A stretch of 63,926 bases of DNA, the filler included, from Collodictyon triciliatum (lineage: Eukaryota): the NCBI GenBank assembly GCA_043381765.1. It is 19 parts of 19 records of this genome, joined end to end, with 100 filler letters (N's around TTAATTAATTAA, not from the genome) between each part and the next. Parts side by side here need not be neighbours in the genome. Positions count along the whole stretch, not along the records: positions 3,624 to 7,145 come from JBHJMP010007208.1; 18 more parts are not named here. The stretch is one strand, 5' to 3'. This document shows, in pieces, positions 2,279-36,256 of this stretch (its first letter is position 1; each line of letters begins with the position of its first letter). Made by a program: the position numbers and the translations under genes. The notes beneath the pieces were generated by a model. That model was given only the letters and a program-made list of their open reading frames with translations. It was not told where the DNA came from and ran no database searches.

Positions 2279-3523
2279 TTTCAATATTCTGGTATTCTTA
2301 CAAAATTGAATGAAAAAATGATAAAGTCTCATTAAAAATAAATTACGCAGGGCGGCAAGCTAAGTACAAAGCCCCTTCATGAGCAAATTGAAAGAAGAAT
2401 GAGCTAAAATACAAAAGTGGCATTAAATGGATAAAATGATGTCTTGTATATGCACTTAGCATATGCTATAATCATGATTAAGGTTTCATTCCCAATTTCC
2501 CCTATTTTCAATTATTTTTTTGTGCAAAAGAACCCATAATCTATTTCGATAGATATTTATATGAAACAAACAGTAATGTTTAATGGGCGACTAATAAAAA
2601 AAAAGAGTATTCAATAATAATTCTCTTAACAATTTCACAACTTCAGAATTTTAGTTTTGCGTAACATAAATAAACTTTCTGAGTGAGCCAGAATATAAAC
2701 AATACTTTTATCGAATGTACTCTTAGATTTTTCGGATTTACTTGACATCCATTTAAATGTTCTTAACTAATAAATTGCCATTTTTAAAGTTATAAAATAG
2801 AGAATTTGAGGTGTGTAATTCAAAAATATTGGAATTATTCTGATGTTGTGAACTGATAAGTGCTTTCCTTCAATAAATGACCTAGGGAAGACTAAATTAT
2901 TTTTAAAAAATCATAATCAGAATGTTCCAACGCTAAATAAATGACCCAACACATAAAAATCATGGTAAATCGAGGATGGATATTAAATATTAATCTAAAT
3001 TGAAAATTGATAATATTAAACCAAAATATCAAGAAAACCTTGCAATAAAAGTACGATTATTGACGCAAAACCACTTTCATTATATAATTGAGAAATAAAA
3101 TACGTTTCATTTATGCGGATACTTAACTTGCCTCAATTATGATTTAAAGAGTGAAACTAGAGTGTATTTTAGATATCATATTATAAGAAAAATACACTTG
3201 GTTCAGCTTCAATCGAACGATTAGAAAATTAAGGCTTTGAAGTTGGATGGTAGCAGATGCGCCCTTAAAAATACCAAGTGATATCTTAGTTGGTGAATAA
3301 TCTGACAAATAACTAATAATTCGTTTTTTAAAAAATAACCAGGAAAACAAATCCCTAAAAAGAGAATATAGTACTATGCATAAGACTAAAGGATGCAAAG
3401 TGCAAAATAAGCAAACAATTAAAGAAACAAACAAACAAACAAACAAACAAACAAACAAACAAACAAACAAACAAACAAACAATTAAACAAACAATTAAAG
3501 AAAGAAAGAAAGAAAGAAAGAAA

Positions 3524-3623
3524 NNNNNNNNNNNNNNNNNNNNNNNNNNNNNNNNNNNNNNNNNNNNTTAATTAATTAANNNNNNNNNNNNNNNNNNNNN
3601 NNNNNNNNNNNNNNNNNNNNNNN
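3524..3623. other. Artificial contig spacer N44-TTAATTAATTAA-N44 (first of 18)
   Basis: The same 100-bp unit recurs at ~7146, 10767, 14388, 18009, 21631, 25252, 28870, 32488, 36106, 39724, 43341, 46956, 50572, 54187, 57802, 61416 and 62758. TTAATTAATTAA gives stops in all six frames. Confidence 0.97.
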
Positions 3624-3708
<85 letters not shown>

Positions 3709-4771
3709 TTGGGAACAAAAAAAAGATTGAGCACTAGCCATCGACTCACGGGTAGCAAGATGAGTATGACTATAATGCTCAGTGTTAGTAGCTCTGATTC
3801 ATTCATCTGTATCTTTTTTCTTTTTCTTTTCTTCTTCGGTATCATTCAGTCTGTAAATGGATAAACTTCATTACAAAAGTTGTGACGAACTTGGTTTTAT
3901 CCCTTTCAAGACACACCACATTTTTTACATCAAAAGTGTACTCATATATAACATTTTATTGCACAGACAACCATTAAATTAAGTCTGGATTGACGAAAGC
4001 AGGAGTTTTGATGAATTCAAGAAAGAACCGAATAATATAATAGTATGATTAGTATATATCATAAGATTAAAAATACTTTATAATCTCATTTTATTCCTAT
4101 AATTAATTTATATTTTATTTTCCATTATGCAATGCTATCGTTAAAATTCAAATACAAAAAAATTACAAATAATTTGTTGTCTTGGCCCAGACAGAACCCA
4201 CGCTGTAAACCTGCGACCAAACATGCATTTCAAAAAAGTACACAATCCACACTTGCGGCGGTAATCATGTTGTTTGGGGCCGATATCTTGACTTTCGGTC
4301 GCGATGGCTATACGGCCGTCCTTTCGAACTCGCCGAATCGGCTCTCAGCGTTTTGTCTCAAATCACTTATAAAAAACTTGTGTGTTTGTTTGCCACAATG
4401 CGCACGTTTTGAAAGTCTCGGTAGATGCTTAATTATATAAATTGATTTTGTGCAGTTTTTTTTATTTTATTAAATCGACTGATTGACTCAAGTTTTATTA
4501 AGATTGAAAGCTCGGTAGTTCTCTAAAGGAAAAAGTAAAACAAAGACTTTCAGAAAAAGAAAAGAAACCGCCTTGAGTCTGAGAATCTAAAGTCTGTAAA
4601 ACCAAACAATCGAAATGTAAAAACATCTCTAAAGTCGATTGTAAAGAATGCGGATGATTATGACACAATCAACGATACGGTTTTACTGTGTCATAATTTG
4701 GTTACAGACGCTTATCTCTTTGCAAGATGTTACATACTGATATCGCAACAACTCTCAACAATCGATGAAAT

Positions 4772-4772
<1 letters not shown>

Positions 4773-4832
<60 letters not shown>
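4773..4832 (+). repeat. 60-nt poly-T run inside the Fanzor coding region
   Basis: Lies between ..TIDEM and LYALKTVG and shifts the frame. Confidence 0.85.
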
Positions 4833-4833
<1 letters not shown>

Positions 4834-5580
4834 TACGCTCTTAAGACAGTCGGAATAGTTTCATAAGATATCCGCAAGATTAAAAAAAAATATCCAGAAA
4901 TGAGAGACGACATGATGACTTCTTTTCTCAATGATTTTCGATATAATTTGTCCCGATAAGAACGCTTTCCGTTGTTTGAACTGTCTCATTATTACCGTAG
5001 TTGGTGAAGCAAATGTTGACAGCTTATCATAATAACATTAAGGAACATTCTGTAAAGAGGTTATTGTGCTTTATAAATCAAACAGTTCCTAAAGATGAGA
5101 ATATTACGGAAGCTACTAAAAAGGCAGAGTTACGAAAGTTAAAAAAAAAAGTCATCTTCAAGAAACTCAAAATACCGGAACAATATAAATAATGGGCTAG
5201 AATCCATTTGCATCATATTACTACCGGCGATATTGTAAGTGGTATCAAATATGACGTCAAAGTTAATCCAAATAAGTACATTCCGTGTCAGCTTTACATG
5301 AATCACATTTATGAGGACATTGGAGCCAAACTGTTTCAACCAATCTCTGTAAGAACTACCAGTATACCATGCCATATTACTCAAGAAACTGCATGTTTGA
5401 TAAGTCTAAGCATCAACTGGAAAAACATCATTAATGGAGAATATATCAGGATGCAAAGAGACATATGGGATTATTTCTTTGAAATGAAGAATATGGTCTT
5501 TCATCAAAGAGACTACAATTTTAAACACATAATACAAACAGACGGCGATTGGCGGTGTCATTATTATTTGAAAGAAAGGT

Positions 5581-5713
5581 GACTTCTTTCCGGTGCTACC
5601 CTCTCCACGGTAGTGTCTTCTCCTACTCGCGTTTGCTCTCTCCCATGCGCTACATCCCGCCCCTTTGTATGGCATAACCTCGCTACACTTTGAATCGAAT
5701 AAAGGAAAAAAAA
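5581..5713 (+). mobile_element. 5'-truncated LINE 3' end inserted into Fanzor, with A-rich tail and 18-bp TSD
   Basis: ATTATTTGAAAGAAAGGT occurs at 5563-5580 and 5714-5731. The insert closely matches the reverse complement of 10108-10243 and 46409-46545. Confidence 0.9.
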
Positions 5714-6639
5714 ATTATTTGAAAGAAAGGTATTTCAAATTCAAAATCCAAATATAACCAAAAACCCCAAGAATATGTTTATATAGATGAACTTTCCGAA
5801 GAGCAGTTATCTTTATTAGCGAAATAAAATAATAGTTGGAGTGAACGCAGGCAAGTTTAATTTGGTTTACATGGTGGATAAGACAGGTAAGAAATCACGT
5901 TACACGGCTCACCAAAGAAGACGTGATAGCAAATCTCTTAAAAATCGAAATAAACTCTTGCGAGAGAAAAGAAAAATACAATGCTTCAGGGATATGGATG
6001 GCAACAGATTAACAAAGTGCTGTTTCTTTTGGTCCCCTGACTTTTGAAGAGAATCAGCAGTTTGAGACATCAAGAGTATCTTTAATCGATTTAGACACAT
6101 AACTGAGTAGACATAATACATGCACGGTCGATTATGAAAAATTTCGAAAACATGTATCTATGAAATCAAGATACCAGACAGAATTATTCAGATTTTATGA
6201 ACAAGTAACTTTTCGAAAAATGAGATGGGGACAGGATGTTAATACAAAAAGAAGTGGAGAATTGCTTATGGGCCGAATCGAAAAGACATTCGGCAAGGAT
6301 GTTGCACTGGCGTATGGAGACTGGAGCAGAAAATGTCAGGTGAAACATTATATGGTAATAATCGTAAGAGGATTACGAAAAATACTGTCCAAACATTTTG
6401 AAACAGATACTGTAGATGAATTAAAAACGTCCAAGATGTGTTGTAACTGCGAAAAAGAACTGGAATATATGAAACTGAAAGGAAATACAAAAAAAGGTTG
6501 TATAGATGCCTCATATGTAAGGAATGTAATCGCTCAGAAAGCAAACAAAGTGTATTCTTGACAAGGGACTTTAACAGCGCTAATGATAGACTCAAGAAAG
6601 TTCTTTTATTCCTTCAAAATATGCATACACCTTCCTCTA

Positions 6640-6753
6640 AAAAACAGGCTGTCGGGTCTTTCCTGGCAGCCTTCACCACTGCACAATCTTTGTGAAAAAA
6701 GTGGTGCGACCTTGGATACTAGCAGAACAGGTTAACCCATCGAAGGGATGGTG
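6640..6753 (+). ncRNA. Candidate Fanzor omegaRNA scaffold (copy 1)
   Basis: 10-bp stem GGCTGTCGGG/CCTGGCAGCC (6647-6671) and stem CACCACT/AGTGGTG (6674-6706), both conserved in copy 2. Overlaps the ORF 3' end, as is typical for TnpB/Fanzor. Confidence 0.6.
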
Positions 6754-9700
6754 GATGAAGATAGTAAATAAAATAATAACAAACAATATATACATCAAAG
6801 CCAACATCCCCACCGTCCTGCACAAAAATTGAAAGGAAGAATAAAAACAAACAAACAAACAAACAAACAAACAAACAAACAAACAAACAAACAAACAAAC
6901 AAACAAACAAACAAACAAACAAACAAACAATATATACACAAAAAAGATAATGTTAGGAGTTTATTTGGTCGTCCCTATTTCGTGGAGCCTTATGCGATGG
7001 TGGGGCTGGCTTGATAATCATTTATTTATTCATTTATTGTTCTAATTTCCGGGTGTGAATCGGAAACTTCAGAACGCCTAGAGCCCTTCAGGGATTTCGC
7101 TTCAATAGGCAATAAAGAACACATAGCCATTCTTCAGTAGCCTTGNNNNNNNNNNNNNNNNNNNNNNNNNNNNNNNNNNNNNNNNNNNNTTAATTAATTA
7201 ANNNNNNNNNNNNNNNNNNNNNNNNNNNNNNNNNNNNNNNNNNNNAATGATAATGATAATGATAATGATAATGATAATGATAATGATAATGATAATGATA
7301 ATGATAATGATAATGATAATGATAATGATAATGATAATGATAATGATAATGATAATGATAATGATAATACTCTTCGAATGAAGAATTAATCAACATTTTG
7401 AATGAAAAATAGAAATAAATATGACTTCATACTACTGCACCTTGGATTGTTTGTCCAAATTGTTTTAATGTGGGGTGCGTTTCCATTAACCAGTCCGCTC
7501 TTTATGGAGAGCCCCTGTGAAGGTTGCTACTTGCTTGAGCAGTGCTGGTTCTTCCATAGCTCCATGTGGTTGGGTTTAAAAGGGTTGGCATTGTCTTTCT
7601 ATACTTGACTGCTCAGTCTGTGAGTATTTGTGGTGGAGTTAACTATAATTTTTTCTTTTGGCTTTTTCCTTGTGTTCTAGCACGGATTATGAAAGAGAGA
7701 GGGAAACGTACCATGCACGTTGATTTTCTTTTTTATACTTCGATTAGTTTTGATGCCAAAACTCGACAAGCACATCACTAAACAGAATATTTATTAACCT
7801 TTGAAGTAAACTGCGGAAAATAGGAGTTTTGTTTTTCATGTACCTTCAATTTTGGCCTTGATGAACCCAAGAGGAATACTGCAGATAATGGATAGCATAA
7901 AGCTGGCCTCTCTTGATGTGGGCGAAAGAAGAAAATGAATGATTAAGTACTATTTAGCTCTATTTTTTCCAATTCTTTTTTTTGGAAAAGTCTGCTTCGT
8001 ATTCTTGAGGTTGGTCGAATAGCTGTTTGATAGTCTTCTCATTGTGGCACTCAATATCTTTCAGGGCTTGGGCTTATTCTTTCCTTGCCTGTTTGTGGGC
8101 GTGGTAGTTTTGGGCAGTTTGTGCTTACCTCGAAGGCGGACGTGGCAGCTGTGTCCATACAAGTTCTGCTTCTGGGCGCTCTTTGATCGGCGAATAGCTG
8201 CAGCTGGGAAGCTTTGGTCGAGCGGAAGACTCTATTCTTATGCTCGGTTTTGTTTACTTCAAGCCAGCGGTTATGATCTCCACGGCGTTCTTCCGTATAA
8301 ACAATTGAAAAATGGAAAAGAAAACAAAAGAGAAAGGATAAAATAAAGTCATGATACGTTAGATTTGTGACGTATATGCGGGTCATCGAATGAAAACAAA
8401 AATAGGAAATATTAATTGATTGAGACAACCTTCATGTCTATTCTATCAAAGACATTCTTATTCGGTTCTTGGTTGTCTTTGTGAGTAAGAGAGGGAAAAC
8501 CCCCTTGGATTGAGCGCGTGAAAGCAACGACCGGTGATCGGCTGGAAATATGCCCCGTGGTGGCCTAGAAAAACTAATAAATGCACAAAAAGTCGATCAG
8601 CAGCAAATGCCGAATGTCATTGAATGAAAAAACCGAAAAGAATGAGGGGATTGTGGGGGGTGGGAAGAATGGTTAAGGTGAAGGACAGCTGTCACGGCAA
8701 AACATCAGGAAGCAAAAAGGGATTGTGATTAGAAAAAAAATGAGTAACAAGATTGTCAGAAAATCAATCTTGGTATTCCAGATTAGGATAATCTGCATGA
8801 CAAAATCATTACTATGTCCATATATAGATTACCATCTTGATATTTTCCTTTATATTTCTTTTTTTGGATTTAGTTGATGGGGTAAGGGTGGTTTTGGGTT
8901 TGTTAAATCTACACCTGCGCCAAGAAAAAAGAAAAAATCAGTGCATGAGCCCCAGTAAATATCTCATCCACGCATTCATATTCATTTGGATAAAACACTT
9001 CATGCGCCTTACCATACACCAGAAAAAAGGCAGCCAAAGCGAGGCAATGATTTATATGGTTGAGTATGAGCTGTTGCCGAGTGTTTATTTCCAGCCGAGT
9101 CGGGCGGAAAGGGTGATGATATCATAGGCGGCAAACTGTGAGGCGAGGGTGTTTCGATCAGGTAGTTGTTCTTGAGTAATATGTATATTATAATGATGGA
9201 ATTTGCATAGAATGAGAGACTTCTTTCATGTTAAACGTAGATATCAGCTCGGCAAGGACACCTATCCGTTTCATGATAAATAGACACAGCTAGCAAATTA
9301 TGGTGATTGCAAAATTAAAATTCATCTTACGCACAAAAAAAAATTGATAAAATAGAAAAGACAGGTTCTGAAGTCTGCAGGAATGGACATCGCTATGATG
9401 TATCAAGCTTTGATTGGTTATGAAAAGCAAAGTGAAATTGAACAGAACTTAATTGTATTTTTGCTTCATTGGCATATTGATTTCTTTGAATAAAAAAAAA
9501 AACAAATTGAAAAAATTTACATGAAAATAGCAATTCATATAAATATATAGAATGTGGTTTTTCTATTACATACCAGCCCCGTGGCGTTCAATTTTAACAC
9601 ACCGAATGTATGAAATGAATTTTTATTATTTATTCTTTGAATTTTATGGACAACATTGAGACTTCTTGTTTCTCATACAATAACATATCCCAACACCCCA

Positions 9701-10107
9701 CAAATCGTTCCTGAGACCATCTCTTCATATCATCGGAAAAACTAGGAGAAGTTCATCCATCCAACCCTCACCCACGTTAAAGGCAGCAAATCGAGCTGTT
9801 CCCTTTCCCTTGGGTGTTTTGTCTCATGCCATTTTACCTTGTCCTTCGTAGAATTCAAAGTAGGAGATAAAGTTAGCGAAAATCAGGCACAAAAGGTCAT
9901 ATATTCATACATGTGTCTTATTTTGATATAAAAATAATTCAAAATATGACTAAATGAAGTCTATTCGAATATTAAATCTCTTAAAAATAGCCATATCATC
10001 TTCGGTCGGTAGCTGATATTTTGGTATTAAATCATCGTTTTCTCCGACATTCGGTTTAGGTTCTTTTTACTCAATAATGGTGATCATTCATCATTAATGA
10101 AACGAAG

Positions 10108-10766
10108 ACTTTTTTCCTTTATTTATTCAAAGTGCAGCGGGGTTATGCCATACAAGGGGTCGAGATATTAGCGCGTGATAGAGAGCAAACGCGAGTAAGA
10201 GAAGACACTGCCGTGGAGAGGGTAGCACTGGAAAGAAATCAGTGATAGCGAGTTGGTCAGGTGGGCGACCCAACTGGTTGATTGGCTGCGTGGGTAGAAG
10301 GGGTTGGATATGATGTGGGAGATATCGCACGACACATTCCCACATCTCTCTTCGCTTGCGGTCAGAGTAGCGAAGAATGCGAGCGTATTTCATCAGTTTG
10401 TTCAGGAAGCTGTATTGCACGAGGCTTTCAAGCCTGGATACATTGATTTCTCGTTCGGATGAATCATTGGAGCGAGAGAATGCACGCACACTCCATAGGG
10501 ACCACAGCATATGTCCCCTTGTGACTGTCCAGAGTATTCTAGAGTCGCGGGTCATTTGGTATTGTGCGCCAAACAGGATGTCGGACGCACTGAGTCGATT
10601 GGGAGCATAATCAAGCTCAGAGAGCATCTCGTGGGTAGACTCTGTCACTTTTTGAGCAAGGGAGCACTTCACAAATGTGTGTTCGATAGAGTCATCTCCA
10701 CTATGGCACATGGTGCATTCTGGAGAGGTCGTTGCTGCATGGACTACACGCACACCTATCCACAGC
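10108..10766 (-). mobile_element. L1/Tx1-like non-LTR retrotransposon 3' end (ORF2 C-terminal zinc knuckle, 3'UTR, A tail)
   Basis: ORF 10127-10753 contains CTMCHSGDDSIEHTFVKC (zf-RVT-like CCHC) and LWSLWSVR. Ends TTTGAATAAATAAAGGAAAAA; repeated elsewhere in the window. Confidence 0.85.
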
Positions 10767-10866
10767 NNNNNNNNNNNNNNNNNNNNNNNNNNNNNNNNNN
10801 NNNNNNNNNNTTAATTAATTAANNNNNNNNNNNNNNNNNNNNNNNNNNNNNNNNNNNNNNNNNNNN

Positions 10867-26272: not shown

Positions 26273-27801
26273 ATGAGCTTAATTTACCTCTCGACGGCTG
26301 CTCTTACGTTCATGATATCAGCATGGATGGTTGATAACATTCTTGCCGAAGGACCAAAGATGTTCCTATTGAATTTGGAAAAAAATGCTCTTGAGTACAA
26401 AGTTAAGGTTGCAATATAGCGAAAAACTATAGAATTGAATTGAAATGATACCTTTAAACTCAACTGAGATATTCATGTCTTCAAACATTTATCCAGGAGT
26501 TTGTCGATTATCATCGAGCCAATAGTGCCACTTATAGTCGAAAGGTATTAAATAGACTTCCAGAATACGATGCCATGTACTGGTTTTCTGGAGGTTACTT
26601 TTATGTGGAACCTTCTTTATTTAAAAGCTGGAATAAGAGACCAAGAGCTGATTTCTTTGAACCGTCTCTTTACAAATTTTATATGAAATACAAGGAATGG
26701 CCAACGGCTGGTTTAATGATCAAGAATGGAACTGGAGTATATGAAAAGCAAGACATATATTCTCCACACATGATGCATGAGGGTGAGCACTGGATCTCAC
26801 TAACTGAACAAGCAACCTTCTTTGTTTTTAAAAGAGAAGTTTTTGCAACGGATTTATATAGTGTCTTTTCCGGTGCTTGCAGTTCTAAGATGTCCGTCAT
26901 GGGATATAGTATGGTAAACATAAGTTCTATGACAACAAGGTGTATTATTAACAATAAAGTAGATTTGAAATATCAACGTGTTATTTTATTACCGATAGGA
27001 AAATGGGGAGAAAGAAACTATTATCATATATGGTTTGATACTTTGTTGCATTGGTTTACACTTCCTGAACATATCAGAAATAATAAAAAAATCAAGATAC
27101 TCATCGATAGAAGAACGGTTTTTTCCAAATTTGCACTTTCACATTTTGGTATCTCCGAAAATCGCTTGATTGAGTTCTCTCGAAACGATAATTGCTTTCT
27201 CGATTTTAAAGAGGTCATTATACCAACTCTTCCAATTTGTGTCAAGCCTATTTTGCCTCAGATGCTTCTGCTAAGACACCACTTTGGTGTAAAAGAACTG
27301 AACTTAACACAATATTCATTACCTTATAGAGAACCAGTCGTCCCTTTTGTATCAAATACAGACGTAGGAGGCAAAAAACTCATGGTTATTCTAGACCGAC
27401 GCCAACAAAGACCAGTTAATAATACAGCAATCATGGCGTCAGAGCTCATGAAAAAATACGGAAGTAATTGGAATGTTGTACGTTATGAAAACCTATTTAT
27501 CGAACAATCCATCAAACTGTTTAGAAATGCGAAAATGATCATTGGACAACATGGAGCTGGTTTTGTAAACATGTTATTTTCAACATCGACAAGCATCATA
27601 GAAATACACGATACAACTCCCATGACGCCTACAAGGCCACCCGGCATTGTCGATTGTTACGCTGTCATGGCTAGAAAGCTGCAATTTCCGTATATGGCAA
27701 TAGAAGGTGACAGAAGATATTACGATATCCCGAAAGTTATGAGCTACGTTGATAAGATGATGGGGATATTACAGACAGGTCTAACAAGCAACCATGATTA
27801 G
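26273..27801 (+). CDS. Glycosyltransferase family 61 (DUF563) protein
   Basis: Hydrophobic N-terminal exon, intron 26408-26496, and motifs NYYHIWFDTL and LFRNAKMIIGQHGAGFVNMLF..IIEI. Confidence 0.8.
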
Positions 27802-30749: not shown

Positions 30750-32412
30750 ATTTTTCTTTCCTTTATTCGATTCAAAGTCACACAAATTAGCCTTTAATAC
30801 GATACAGTTCGATTGTCTGGACTCACAAGGAAGGAAAAAAACGCATTATGTGAGCTTTTTTTCCTTTATTCGATTCAAATTTCAGCAAGGTCATGCCATA
30901 CAAAGGGGCGAGATAGGTGCGCATGGTAAAGAGCAAACGCTAGTAAGAGAAGACACTACTGTGGAGGGGCTAGCAAATGCATCATGTGAGCTTAATGTGC
31001 ATAGCAGCTGCCTTAAAGCGGAACGGAGATGTGGATGACGAAGTCATTTACGAGTTTCAGTTACTAGTCCCCCAATAGAAGCTGGTGCAAGTCTCCCAGG
31101 GCTTTGATGAGAGGGTAAAATGGTTGCGTAAGTTCCCTTTCGCTCTTGTCTAGCAAATCCTGTCATGAGGATGAATAGGTTGAGTAAGCTGCTCCTCTTG
31201 GTTTCCAGTTCCTGGGACATCATTTACCAACATTTCTACAATGATTGCTGATGAACGAGGGTCTTGGATGTATCCAGGGGGTTTGCTACAGATTAGCCTG
31301 GTGGATGTGTTATTACTGGGTCCCTCGCACACTATTCTGATTCTGTCGCCGAGTTGACGTGGGCTTCTCTTTGATCAGCATCCTCTTTGTTATTCGGAGG
31401 TGAGTTTGATGGGATATCAACAGCTTGAAAAAGTTCATAATATTGAGGGCTGACGATGTTTTCTACATTGCTATGATGGAGCGATTTCATTGCATCATCT
31501 CCTCCATATTCTGGCGAGTTTACATCAGCAGGTTCAAGCGAATGGACAGGTGATTCATCAATGCGCTCGGCATACATATCAAGTTTGGGGCCGTTCATCA
31601 CCCGATGGCTTTACAGTCACTTCGAGCACCTCGCCTGTGGGTATGCAGTCACTATTTTCCCTACTTCTTGGCATCGGGCGATGCTGTCTCCTTACCTTGG
31701 ACCTTGAGGTTGTGCTGCAGACGGTTTTTGCGCACACGAGTCACAAATACCTGGTCAAGCTTCAGTACTGAATAGGTTATCGTTTCTGTGTGTCACAAAG
31801 CGCGTTTGGTATCGCTTTGGTTGTTGCGGGCTACTTAATTGGCAGTGGTTTACCGGATGTTTTTCTTTTCTTTTTTCCACCAAGGAGCTGAATGGTATTC
31901 TAATTGCGGAAATTAATTATAATGTACAATTGGTGCCTGTTTCTGATCAAATTTTTTTACATTTGCTGTACATTTCAATGTGCATCATTTGATTCCCAGT
32001 AGATATAGTGGTTGTCTCACCTTCCTACTCATATGTCTATATTCAGTGTAAATCTTGGGTGGGTTGCGATTTGGCAACGGTTTCTATTAATAGGTAATGA
32101 CCTATATCAATCAATGTGCAGATTTATCGGAAGCCTAAAAACGGCGTACAAATGTGGACCTTTGATATTGGGGCGGTTGCTTTGCTGTGGGTTTGGACGG
32201 CCGCACAGGCGACTCCCACCGCACAAGAAATCCGCCGGGTGAGGCCCTGAAACAGCAAAACTGGAACAGGGATTCCGGTCATTGAAAAAATAGTTTACTC
32301 TCCACTACTGTGTCTCATTGGCAGGGTTGGACAAAGCATATTCTGCCACTTTTGTTTTCGTGAAAGAATAAGCACGACAAACGAGCTCTCCTCCCAATCC
32401 TCTGCTGGGAGG
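30750..32412 (-). mobile_element. Putative decayed non-autonomous retroelement ending in the LINE terminal motif
   Basis: 3' end reads CTTTGAATCGAATAAAGGAAAGAAAAA on the minus strand at ~30750-30778. Interior has broken ORFs (31150-31601). 5' limit uncertain (near contig end). Confidence 0.4.
30858..30974 (-). mobile_element. Second ~117-bp LINE 3'-end insertion with imperfect TSD
   Basis: AAACGCATTATGTGAGCTT (30839-30857) versus AAATGCATCATGTGAGCTT (30975-30993). Insert matches the LINE 3'UTR. Confidence 0.8.
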
Positions 32413-32587: not shown

Positions 32588-33598
32588 AAAGCCAAAATAA
32601 AAAAAAAAAAAAAAAAAAACAACAACCAAGAATATGTTTATTTCATTGAACTTTCCAAAGACCAGTTATCTTTATTAGCGACAAAAAAAAATATAGTTGT
32701 AGTGGACGCAGGCAAGTTTAATTTGGTTTACATGGTGGATGAGACAGGTAAGAAATTATGTTACACGGCACACCAAAAAAGACATGATAGCAAATCTCTT
32801 AAAAATCACAAAATACTCATGCACTAGAAAAAAAAAGTACAATTCTTCAGCGATATGCATGACAACAGGTTTACAAAATGATGCTTCTTTTGGTCTCAGG
32901 GCTTTTGAAGAGAATCAGCAGTTTGAGATATCAAGAGTATCTTTCATCGATTTAGAGACATAACTGAGTGAGCATAATTCATGCACGGTCGATTATGAAT
33001 AATTTCGAAAATAAATATCTATGAAATCGAGATACTAGATGGAATTTTCCAGATTTTATGAACAAGTAACTTTTCGGAAGGTGAGGTGGAGACATTATGT
33101 TAAAACAAAAAGAAGTGAAGAATTATTTATGGACCGAATCGAAAAGACATTTGGCAAGGATGTTGTAGTGGCGTATGGAGACTGGAGTAGAAAATGTCCG
33201 ATGAAACATTTAACGCCAACAACCAGAAGAGGGTTTCAAAAAATACTATCCAAAAGTTTTGAAACAGTTAGTGTAGATGAATTTAGAACCTCCAAGATGT
33301 GTTGTAACTGCGAAAAGGAACTGGAATATATGAAACTGAAAGGAAATTCAAAAAATATGTGTATAGATGTCTCATATGTAAAGAATGTAATCGCTCAGAA
33401 AGCAAACAAACTGTGTTCTTGACAAGGGACTTTAACAGCGCTAATAATATGCGCAACAAAGTTCTTTTTATCCTTCAAAATATGCTACACCTTGCTCTAA
33501 AAAACTGGCTGTCGGGTTTTTCCTGGCAGCCTTCACCACTACACAATCTTTACGAAAAAGTGGTGAGACCTTGGATAGTAGCGCACCAGGTTTACTAA
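32588..33598 (+). pseudogene. Fanzor1 copy 2, C-terminal half (RuvC plus zinc finger), decayed
   Basis: IVVVDAGKFNLVYM, FYEQVTFRKVRW, AYGDWS, VDEFRTSKMCCNC, YRCLICKEC and TRDFNSANN. Collinear with 5760-6695. Confidence 0.9.
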
Positions 33599-33611
33599 TC
33601 TTTCGATGGTG
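33500..33611 (+). ncRNA. Candidate Fanzor omegaRNA scaffold (copy 2)
   Basis: Same stems as copy 1 at 33507-33531 and 33533-33566, plus terminal GCACCA/TGGTGC pairing. Confidence 0.55.
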
Positions 33612-34339
33612 CACCCCTTCTTGTATTGAATATATTACAGACACTCCCCTCATAAATTTGAAAAAATTCCGTTTTTATTTAAATTCCAGAATTGTGATTC
33701 TAACAAAATTTGAATATTTAAACACACAACCTTGCGTTCGGCAAGGAGATGCGGAGATCGTTTTCTTCCAGGTTTTTTTTTACCCTAATTCTCAGAGCCC
33801 TCCTTGCGTTCTTTGTAATACAAGCACTCCTGACGTTCGAACGGAACGGTGTTCCTTGAATCAATGCGCAATACAAGTACAGCAGAGAAAATTGCAGAAA
33901 AAAAAAAGAAAGAAAAACAGAGAGAACAGGAGAAAAGAAACACAAAACCAAACCAAACAGATATTACAACAATAAAGACAAGAAAACGGGTCACCCAAAA
34001 AGGAGAGGATCCACAACGAGGGACAATGTCACCTTCGCTTCAGTGTCAACGCCCACCACCACCATCATCAAATCACCATCATCAAATCACCATCATCAAA
34101 TCACCATCACCAATATCATCACCAATATCATCACCAATATCATCACCAATATCATCACCAATATCATCACCAATATCACCATCAAACCATCACCAAATCA
34201 CCATCAAACCATCATCGAATCATAATCAAATCACCACCAATATAATCATCAATATCCCCATGCCCATTATCCTGCTGCACACAGACACCCACACCGGAGG
34301 GGAGAAGCCACGACAGCAAGAGCGACAAAGCACAGCCCG

Positions 34340-35359
<1,020 letters not shown>

Positions 35360-36256
35360 CTTCTGCTCGCCCAGCTTTGCTGTGGGTTTGCATGTGTGTC
35401 ATGGCTTTTTTTCTCCTTTTTTTTCCCTCTCTCTCCCTCTCTCCCTCCTTACTTCGCTGTTGGCACCTTTGTCATCGGGCGTAAATTATGCAGATACCGC
35501 TACTCAACACCTGTGTCACTCTTCTCTGTCTTGGCCAGCAAACATATTCTTTGGCTGCGCTGGTTGGCTCTGTCGCGCGTGTGTTGTCACTGTGTGTGAG
35601 GTGTATGATGAGTGTGCTAATGTGCAATCTTCACTTTGCGTTGACTCTCAAGCCTTCCAGACCCCATGAACATCCAAGAGCAGGAGCAAAAAAAAAAAAA
35701 AAGAAAGTGTGTTGATAAAATGATTTAAAGGAAAAAAAAAAGATATACGAGGGAAAATGCGAATCAGAATTTAAGTGATCCAAAGAGAAATAAGAAAAGA
35801 GAAAATAATTGGAAATCATGTTGTGGTCAACTTCTGTGGATCAAATTCTCCAGATTCAAGAAAAACCAAAAAACCAAAAAAACCAAAAAACCAAAAAACC
35901 AAAAAAACCAAAAAACCAAAAAACCAAAAAACCAAAAAACACAAAAAACACAAAAAACCAAAAAACCAAAAAACCAAAAAACCAAAAAACCAAAAAACCA
36001 AAAAACACAAAAAACACAAAAAACACAAAAAACACAAAAAACACAAAAAACACAAAAAACACAAAAAACACAAAAAACACACAAAAAAAACACAAAAAAA
36101 AAAAANNNNNNNNNNNNNNNNNNNNNNNNNNNNNNNNNNNNNNNNNNNNTTAATTAATTAANNNNNNNNNNNNNNNNNNNNNNNNNNNNNNNNNNNNNNN
36201 NNNNNGTTTTTTATGTTTTTTTATGTTTTTTTATGTTTTTTATGTTTTTTTATGTT

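Follow-up and report, generated by a model that had tools for sequence, protein, structure and literature searches.

We analysed a stretch of 63,926 nucleotides (nt) from the eukaryote Collodictyon triciliatum (assembly GCA_043381765.1), called the window below, which carries the remains of genes for Fanzor1, a eukaryotic RNA-guided nuclease. The window consists of 19 pieces joined by 18 identical linkers of the form N44-TTAATTAATTAA-N44 (3524-3623, 7146-7245 and so on up to 62758-62857). Seventeen pieces measure 3514-3523 nt and stand in almost steadily falling order of length, and the remaining two measure 1242 and 1069 nt. The pieces are separate contigs of a fragmented assembly, and adjacency or distance inside the window is without genomic meaning. 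One copy of the gene (copy 1) lies on the piece 3624-7145, and a second (copy 2) lies on another piece, 32588-36105, starting from its first base. The features of both copies are as follows.

4539..6695, plus strand: copy 1, a near full-length Fanzor1 pseudogene in six collinear fragments
4539-4844, plus strand: open reading frame (ORF) with NVKTSLKSI
4773..4832, plus strand: 60-nt poly-T run, frame-breaking, where relatives have Phe-Phe
5193-5582, plus strand: fragment with KLFQPISVRTTSIPCHI and IIQTDG
5525-5677, plus strand: fragment with LAVSLLF
5581..5713, plus strand: 133-nt insert, the 3' tail of a long interspersed nuclear element (LINE) with its A-tail, and an 18-nt target-site duplication on both sides
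5820-6047, plus strand: fragment with IVGVNAGKFNLVYMVD
5844..5846, plus strand: AAC (Asn) at the position of the RuvC-I catalytic Asp
6103-6561, plus strand: fragment with YGDWS and DELKTSKMCCNC
6418..6420, plus strand: GAA codon for the RuvC-II Glu in DELKTSK, immediately 5' of the zinc finger
6439..6527, plus strand: C4 zinc finger (TNB domain), in which a frameshift near 6496 separates CCNC (6439-6450) from CLICKEC (6507-6527)
6447-6695, plus strand: fragment with CLICKEC and RDFNSAN
6564..6569, plus strand: Arg-Asp of RDFNSAN, with the RuvC-III catalytic Asp (GAC) at 6567-6569
6640..6755, plus strand: 3' end of the ORF and about 60 nt that are alike in copy 2, a candidate omega-RNA scaffold or right-end remnant
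32588..33625, plus strand: copy 2, the C-terminal half (residues 323-647 of the intact relative P0165), cut by the contig edge
32705-32707, plus strand: GAC, the Asp at RuvC-I of copy 2

The frame of copy 1 starts after a TAA at 4536-4538, the final frame closes with the TGA at 6693-6695, and a frameshift-aware alignment with P0165, the closest intact relative, spans 4557-6677. The read-through of copy 1 gives 645 residues, including 15 X, next to the 648 amino acids (aa) of P0165. A preliminary description of this DNA had joined fragments from several frames into an intronless protein of about 650 aa; the named motifs are all present in the order it gave, on the plus strand, the length estimate agrees with the read-through, and neither copy needs an intron to align.

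Fanzor1 proteins have been defined by the motif D-X(125,275)-[TS][TS]-x-x-C4-X(5,50)-RD (Bao and Jurka 2013, PMC3627910). Copy 1 satisfies this motif except for the first Asp, which is Asn in copy 1 and Asp in copy 2 and in the family. The codons reported earlier for the two copies, AAC at 5844-5846 and GAC at 32705-32707, were both confirmed. In copy 1, about 194 codons separate the RuvC-I position (5844) from the [TS][TS] pair (6427), a spacing within the range of 125-275; the corresponding residues of P0165 are D364 and T558. A Glu stands just before the zinc finger in both copies (DELKTSKMCC in copy 1, DEFRTSKMCC in copy 2), and the Glu of DELKTSK aligns with IDEfrTS of the Parasitella Fanzor1 and DEyKTS of SpuFz1. 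The C4 zinc finger followed by Arg-Asp can be read as CCNC...CLICKEC...RDFNSAN in both copies, only across a common frameshift. The RuvC-I Asp, the pre-zinc-finger Glu and the RuvC-III Asp are invariant columns in alignments of 37 and 40 relatives, and the GDWS motif of copy 1 also falls on positions invariant in these relatives. The Fanzor1 layout recognized in the preliminary description, with its pre-zinc-finger Glu and GDWS, is supported by these relatives. The residue after the RuvC-I position is Ala in both copies (5847-5849 in NAGK; 32708-32710 in DAGK), and Pro occupies this place (D-P-G-K) invariantly in the 37 and 40 relatives.

A profile built from 37 full-length relatives was searched against the 1934 stop-to-stop fragments of the window (at least 20 aa, six frames; Z = 1e6). 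It matched nine fragments and no others, with E-values from 1e-6 to 6e-43, well beyond what chance would give. Six of them, all on the plus strand, are the collinear fragments of copy 1 and together span profile positions 6-592 of 604; the other three, from copy 2, are collinear as well (positions 324-586). An N-terminal half of the Fanzor1 type (REC/WED), collinear over the full length, is therefore present, the same profile covering SpuFz1 at 6-596. The profile also matched the three solved Fanzor1s end to end (E 2.4e-103, 4.1e-99 and 1.5e-83). The 152-aa fragment at 6103-6561 had three matches in the PDB at E<=10, all of them Fanzor1s, from Parasitella (1.4e-9), Spizellomyces (SpuFz1, 8.3e-5) and Guillardia (GtFz1, 0.14), and the alignments pair its DELKTSK Glu and GDWS with the equivalent residues of those structures. 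A search of 1.84 billion representative proteins with this fragment gave 1227 relatives at E<=1e-3, and many of these have a length of 590-700 aa. Translated search with P0003, an intact relative of 634 aa, matched copy 1 at E 1.9e-85. Pfam placed a TnpB/Fanzor family on none of six window fragments, returning weak unrelated matches below the cut-off; PF07282 was found on 4/4 relatives at E<0.01, in one case above the Pfam cut-off. Pfam alone being blank on the six fragments, the recognition of the motifs across frames in the preliminary description was a real catch.

The fold was tested with an AlphaFold model of the intact relative P0165 rather than of the broken copies in the window. The model had a predicted local distance difference test score (pLDDT) of 85 and a predicted template modeling score (pTM) of 0.83. 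It matched SpuFz1 at E 8.8e-27 with a template modeling (TM) score of 0.73/0.78, and the top seven PDB matches were all Fanzor1s. The TM score was 0.20 against the Fanzor2 ApmFz2 (9b0l) and 0.24 against the ISDra2 TnpB (8h1j), compared with 0.72-0.73 for SpuFz1, and Fanzor2, TnpB and Cas12f together ranged over 0.20-0.31. Neither a short TnpB-like architecture nor a closest match to Fanzor2 or TnpB was found. Both copies can thus be assigned to Fanzor1 with good support from their sequence, from the profile and from the fold modelled for their nearest intact relative.

P0165 comes from a public metagenome assembly. It is identical to copy 1 at 371 of 630 aligned residues (59%; P0165 residues 2-640) and to copy 2 at 189 of 320 (P0165 residues 323-647). 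A quick maximum-likelihood IQ-TREE tree of 50 rows, with support from the Shimodaira-Hasegawa-like approximate likelihood ratio test (SH-aLRT), paired the window copies at 99 and placed them in a clade with P0165 and P0001, also at 99. The sister of this clade is one that holds viral elements (SH-aLRT 93, not starred). P0003 is 44% identical to the copy 1 read-through (261/595), has copies 80-88% identical on giant-virus contigs, and its nearest protein-atlas clusters are 92-100% Viruses, most commonly Nucleocytoviricota. The atlas lists PF26935 both on P0165 and on the clusters nearest P0003. A name look-up for 18 clusters of the closest proteins gave no informative name and one that was evidently wrong. 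Searching viral contigs with P0165 returned no relative, and searching metagenome contigs returned one locus of 21% identity (L006), which was not used. The preliminary description had suggested an undescribed Fanzor family; this is not supported, as both copies fall within Fanzor1, alongside an intact relative and next to the giant-virus Fanzor1s.

The closest relatives that have a label are carried by Tc1/mariner-type transposons on giant-virus contigs (L001 and also L002-L004). On L001 the intact element is 3.3 kb long (2637-5952), has TA on both flanks and is bounded by terminal inverted repeats of 32 nt that match perfectly (2637-2668 and 5921-5952). It encodes a DDE_3 transposase of 346 aa on the minus strand and, divergent from it, the Fanzor1 of 634 aa on the plus strand. 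Over its last 263 nt this element folds with a z of -4.96, and none of 200 shuffles was as good, as expected for an omega-RNA scaffold that overlaps the end of the ORF. Mariner-Fanzor1 elements have been described in algal viruses, and viruses have been suggested to spread Fanzors (Bao and Jurka 2013, PMC3627910); the L001 element has the Tc1/mariner-Fanzor1 layout reported there.

Neither window copy retains the open reading frame of a Fanzor1. The lesions of copy 1 were mapped against P0165 by frameshift-aware alignment. From the stop at 4536-4538 to the poly-T run there is no ATG, save for a Met that aligns internally, and in the poly-T region the alignment jumps 52 nt at 4773-4824 (mod 3 = 1). 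Six in-frame stops occur (4864, 4957, 4998, 5190, 6010 and 6100). Frameshifts lie near 4990, 5415, 5461, 5547, 5822, 5973 and 6496, and the frame-breaking insertions and deletions number at least eight in total. Copy 1 is a pseudogene.

The coding region of copy 1 is also interrupted by the LINE tail, flanked by the 18-nt target-site duplication ATTATTTGAAAGAAAGGT at 5563-5580 and 5714-5731. This tail is 87-90% identical to 10110-10241, 46407-46544 and 30856-30975, which are the ends of LINE ORF2 remnants, and it has a translated match to a LINE C-terminus; the left flank of copy 1 has no LINE protein match besides the inserted tail. The LINE family in the window comprises 10104-10810 and 46406-46955 (both minus strand), 30856-30975 and 5581-5713 (plus strand), with copies that are 83-90% alike and share a 3' tail of about 130 nt. 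Its ORF2 C-terminal remnants carry a zf-RVT motif at E 1.3e-4, below the Pfam cut-off.

Copy 2 has four stops (32961, 33000, 33012 and 33036) and four shifts (near 32822, 33357, 33476 and 33498), and is 86.5% identical to copy 1 in DNA over 989 nt. From about 5830 to 6620 the DNA of the two copies aligns without a gap, which makes the shifts near 5973 and 6496 common to both. The TAA at 6100/32961 is common as well. Between the copies, the ratio of nonsynonymous to synonymous substitution rates (dN/dS) is 1.07 over 276 codons, and the differences by codon position are 28/42/36. The common lesions together with this neutral divergence indicate that the copy from which both derive was dead already. 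The preliminary description proposed that a consensus of the two copies would recover the D-E-D triad and might allow the family to be reconstructed. The consensus does recover the RuvC-I Asp, but two shared frameshifts and one shared stop leave its reading frame broken, and reconstruction from these two copies is not supported. The in-frame stops of both copies are TAA or TAG in 10/10 cases and never TGA, and 2/10 align to Gln; single-base changes from A-rich codons are the simplest explanation of this bias. A genetic code with TAA/TAG as sense was considered and rejected, given that so few stops stand at Gln and that the frameshifts persist under any code.

Sequences related to the family are found in other public runs. 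A word search with 5750-6736 gave small shares (0.05-0.15) in 13 runs, from which no habitat or strain is inferred; no RNA data set was among the runs matching this segment, the label 'RNA?' of run X2 being a guess. Contigs of four runs were aligned onto 4400-6900 at a likeness of at least 80%, and the findings below come from the differences listed. The numbers of aligning contigs were 4 (X1), 493 (X2), 87 (X3) and 198 (X4); such contigs prove presence only, never absence. Base 5844 is G, giving GAC (Asp), in all covering contigs (14 of X2, one of X3 and four of X4). Base 6100 is G in all covering contigs of X2 (17) and X4 (5), with none covering in X3. At base 5190, G makes up 177.8 of a depth of 190.5 in X2, and every X3 or X4 contig that covers the base has it. 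Two nt are missing at 5547 in all covering contigs (four of X2, one of X4), and some contigs have an extra TT at 5408 or an extra C at 5463. Three X2 contigs run from 5571 straight to 5722, without the LINE tail. The states of the contigs at the lesion sites of copy 1 point to many variant members that are without several of its lesions, and the lesions absent from other members include one common to copy 2. The depth of aligned contigs drops past about 6751 and before about 4484; this was not used, as depth cannot define the ends of an element. In run X2, the summed contig depth of the LINE tail is roughly ten times that of the Fanzor part.

An intact member of the family, judging from characterized Fanzor1s (PMC10432273, PMC10530073, PMC11423790), would be an omega-RNA-guided nuclease of about 650 aa, with a REC/WED N-terminal half and a split RuvC domain (Asp, Glu before the C4 zinc finger, Asp). 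Its guide RNA would be a transcript of the gene's 3' end together with the right end of the transposon, and the nuclease would cut double-strand DNA beside a short transposon-adjacent motif. Neither window copy is able to make the protein.

The solved Fanzor1s SpuFz1 (8gkh), PpFz1 (9cf0) and GtFz1 (9cer) share with the family a full-length collinear profile homology, the fold of P0165, the layout of Asp, Glu before the zinc finger and Asp, and the GDWS and DExxTS motifs. They differ from it in sequence (about 20% identity to P0165 by structural alignment), and the window copies, unlike them, are broken. GtFz1 is naturally active with an Asn at the third catalytic position (PMC11423790), whereas the Asn of copy 1 stands at the first; this precedent is not applicable to copy 1, and the question is moot in a gene so broken. 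P0165 has 59% identity to both copies and shares their clade, but it keeps an open frame and has Asp-Pro at RuvC-I where copy 1 has Asn-Ala and copy 2 has Asp-Ala. The mariner Fanzor1s of giant viruses (L001-L004, of the kind of PGv-1 and Mariner-1_OLpv) belong to the sister lineage and resemble the family in ORF length (634-648 aa). Their Fanzor gene stops a few tens of nt before the right end of the element, as does the similarity between copy 1 and copy 2. They differ in their 44% identity and in having a DDE_3 transposase, recognizable inverted repeats and TA flanks, none of which was found in the window. TnpB (ISDra2) and Fanzor2 have in common with the family the RuvC and zinc-ribbon core and the RNA-guided mechanism, but their N-terminal half is much shorter, in keeping with their low TM scores to the P0165 model.

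Taken together, the two loci are very probably decayed copies of one family of DNA transposons that carried a Fanzor1 gene in a eukaryotic genome. A number of observations weigh against this explanation. At the 3' ends, where the similarity between the copies stops near 6755, two hairpins are predicted in both as a candidate omega-RNA, with a fold z of only -2.0 and -2.2. A scan for inverted repeats around copy 1 found only AT-rich or low-complexity pairs, the 18-mer at its 3' boundary has no inverted mate, and no target duplication of a transposon was found around it on the 3.5-kb contig. A tblastn search of the window with the giant-virus transposase gave only E>1, whereas the giant-virus relatives have terminal repeats, TA flanks and a transposase. 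The RuvC-I fragment of copy 2 alone matched SpuFz1 at E 0.2 only. Some of the single-base frameshifts lie in A-runs and could be errors of a very fragmented assembly. The aligned contigs of other runs are from other samples and may be copies of other organisms, and the comparison of lesions covers only sites among the differences listed.

The relics might instead derive from an integrated segment of a giant virus, or from a mariner-Fanzor element delivered by a virus, rather than from a transposon family long resident in the host. The labelled relatives nearest to the family are indeed viral, as the P0003 clusters and its copies on giant-virus contigs indicate, the viral clade is the sister of the window clade, and a role for viruses in the spread of Fanzors has been suggested, as noted above. 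We nevertheless consider such an origin unlikely. The identity to the viral form is 44%, and the copies group instead with unlabelled metagenomic proteins, of which P0165 has no relative in viral contigs. No viral gene is present on either 3.5-kb contig, nor any mariner transposase in the window, while a host LINE tail is inserted in copy 1 and many variant copies exist. An assignment to another protein of the TnpB superfamily (Fanzor2, prokaryotic TnpB or Cas12) brought in by a contaminant has next to no probability. The RuvC and zinc-ribbon core is common to these proteins, and PF07282 is found on the relatives, but all significant PDB sequence matches as well as the top structural matches are Fanzor1s, over the full length, and the other groups score poorly against the P0165 model. 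The contig of copy 1 bears a eukaryotic LINE tail common to other contigs of the window. The tail of about 130 nt ties the copy 1 piece and three others to one genome, and the window DNA is eukaryotic in its content: besides LINE remnants bearing the zf-RVT motif and numerous microsatellites, it has genes for proteins with SPRY, DEP, WD40 and GT61 domains.

That the gene is alive, and that its breaks are introns, recoded TAA/TAG codons or sequencing errors, is very improbable and has been largely refuted. The absence of TGA among the stops, the position of several shifts in A-runs and the high fragmentation of the assembly would fit such a reading. The stops that do not align to Gln, however, stand at Glu, Lys, Tyr, Leu, Ser or an insertion, a change of code would leave the frameshifts in place, and the shifts are not introns, since no aligned residue is lost at them. 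The LINE tail with its target duplication, the 60-nt poly-T run, the missing ATG and the dN/dS close to one all speak for decay, and two long ORFs of the host, of 729 and 447 aa, stay open when read with the standard code.

Elsewhere in the window, scans with Rfam and for tRNAs gave no matches over its whole length. WD40-repeat genes lie at 24509-25251 (plus strand) and 54717-56906 (minus strand). The first contains near-identical tandem units (24676-25251) that are 88-91% identical to one another, and in the second, an ORF of 729 aa, an (SQ)n microsatellite lies in frame and the C-terminal part is without a Pfam explanation. An intron-free ORF of 447 aa at 26458-27801 (plus strand) encodes a glycosyltransferase of family 61 (Pfam E 3.1e-17), with its nearest protein-atlas clusters in Annelida, Parabasalia and Rotifera, a mixture of eukaryotic phyla that lends no support to the protist genome named in the preliminary description. 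A block of 562 N at 58504-59065 lies within one piece and is unlike the 44-N linkers; it may be a scaffold gap or a stretch withheld from the sequence, and it breaks an ORF that adjoins a DnaJ_C-like gene (59701-60645, minus strand).

The relics in the window represent a dead, but new, member of the already well-described Fanzor1 family. With 3655 Fanzor nucleases catalogued across eukaryotes and viruses (PMC10530073), Fanzor1 well characterized, three structures solved and both copies dead, they carry little weight as a discovery. They offer a clean example of a nuclease gene recognized across frameshifts and record a lineage that adjoins the mariner-Fanzor elements of giant viruses. It is possible, though rather doubtful, that they show only a small part of a Fanzor1 lineage that is abundant, and perhaps still active, in a freshwater eukaryote and is sister to the giant-virus mariner Fanzor1s. 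If so, its intact natural members would provide a compact nuclease of about 650 aa, and the lineage would be a concrete case of virus-host exchange of RNA-guided transposon cargo. A complete genome of the source organism may hold such intact members.

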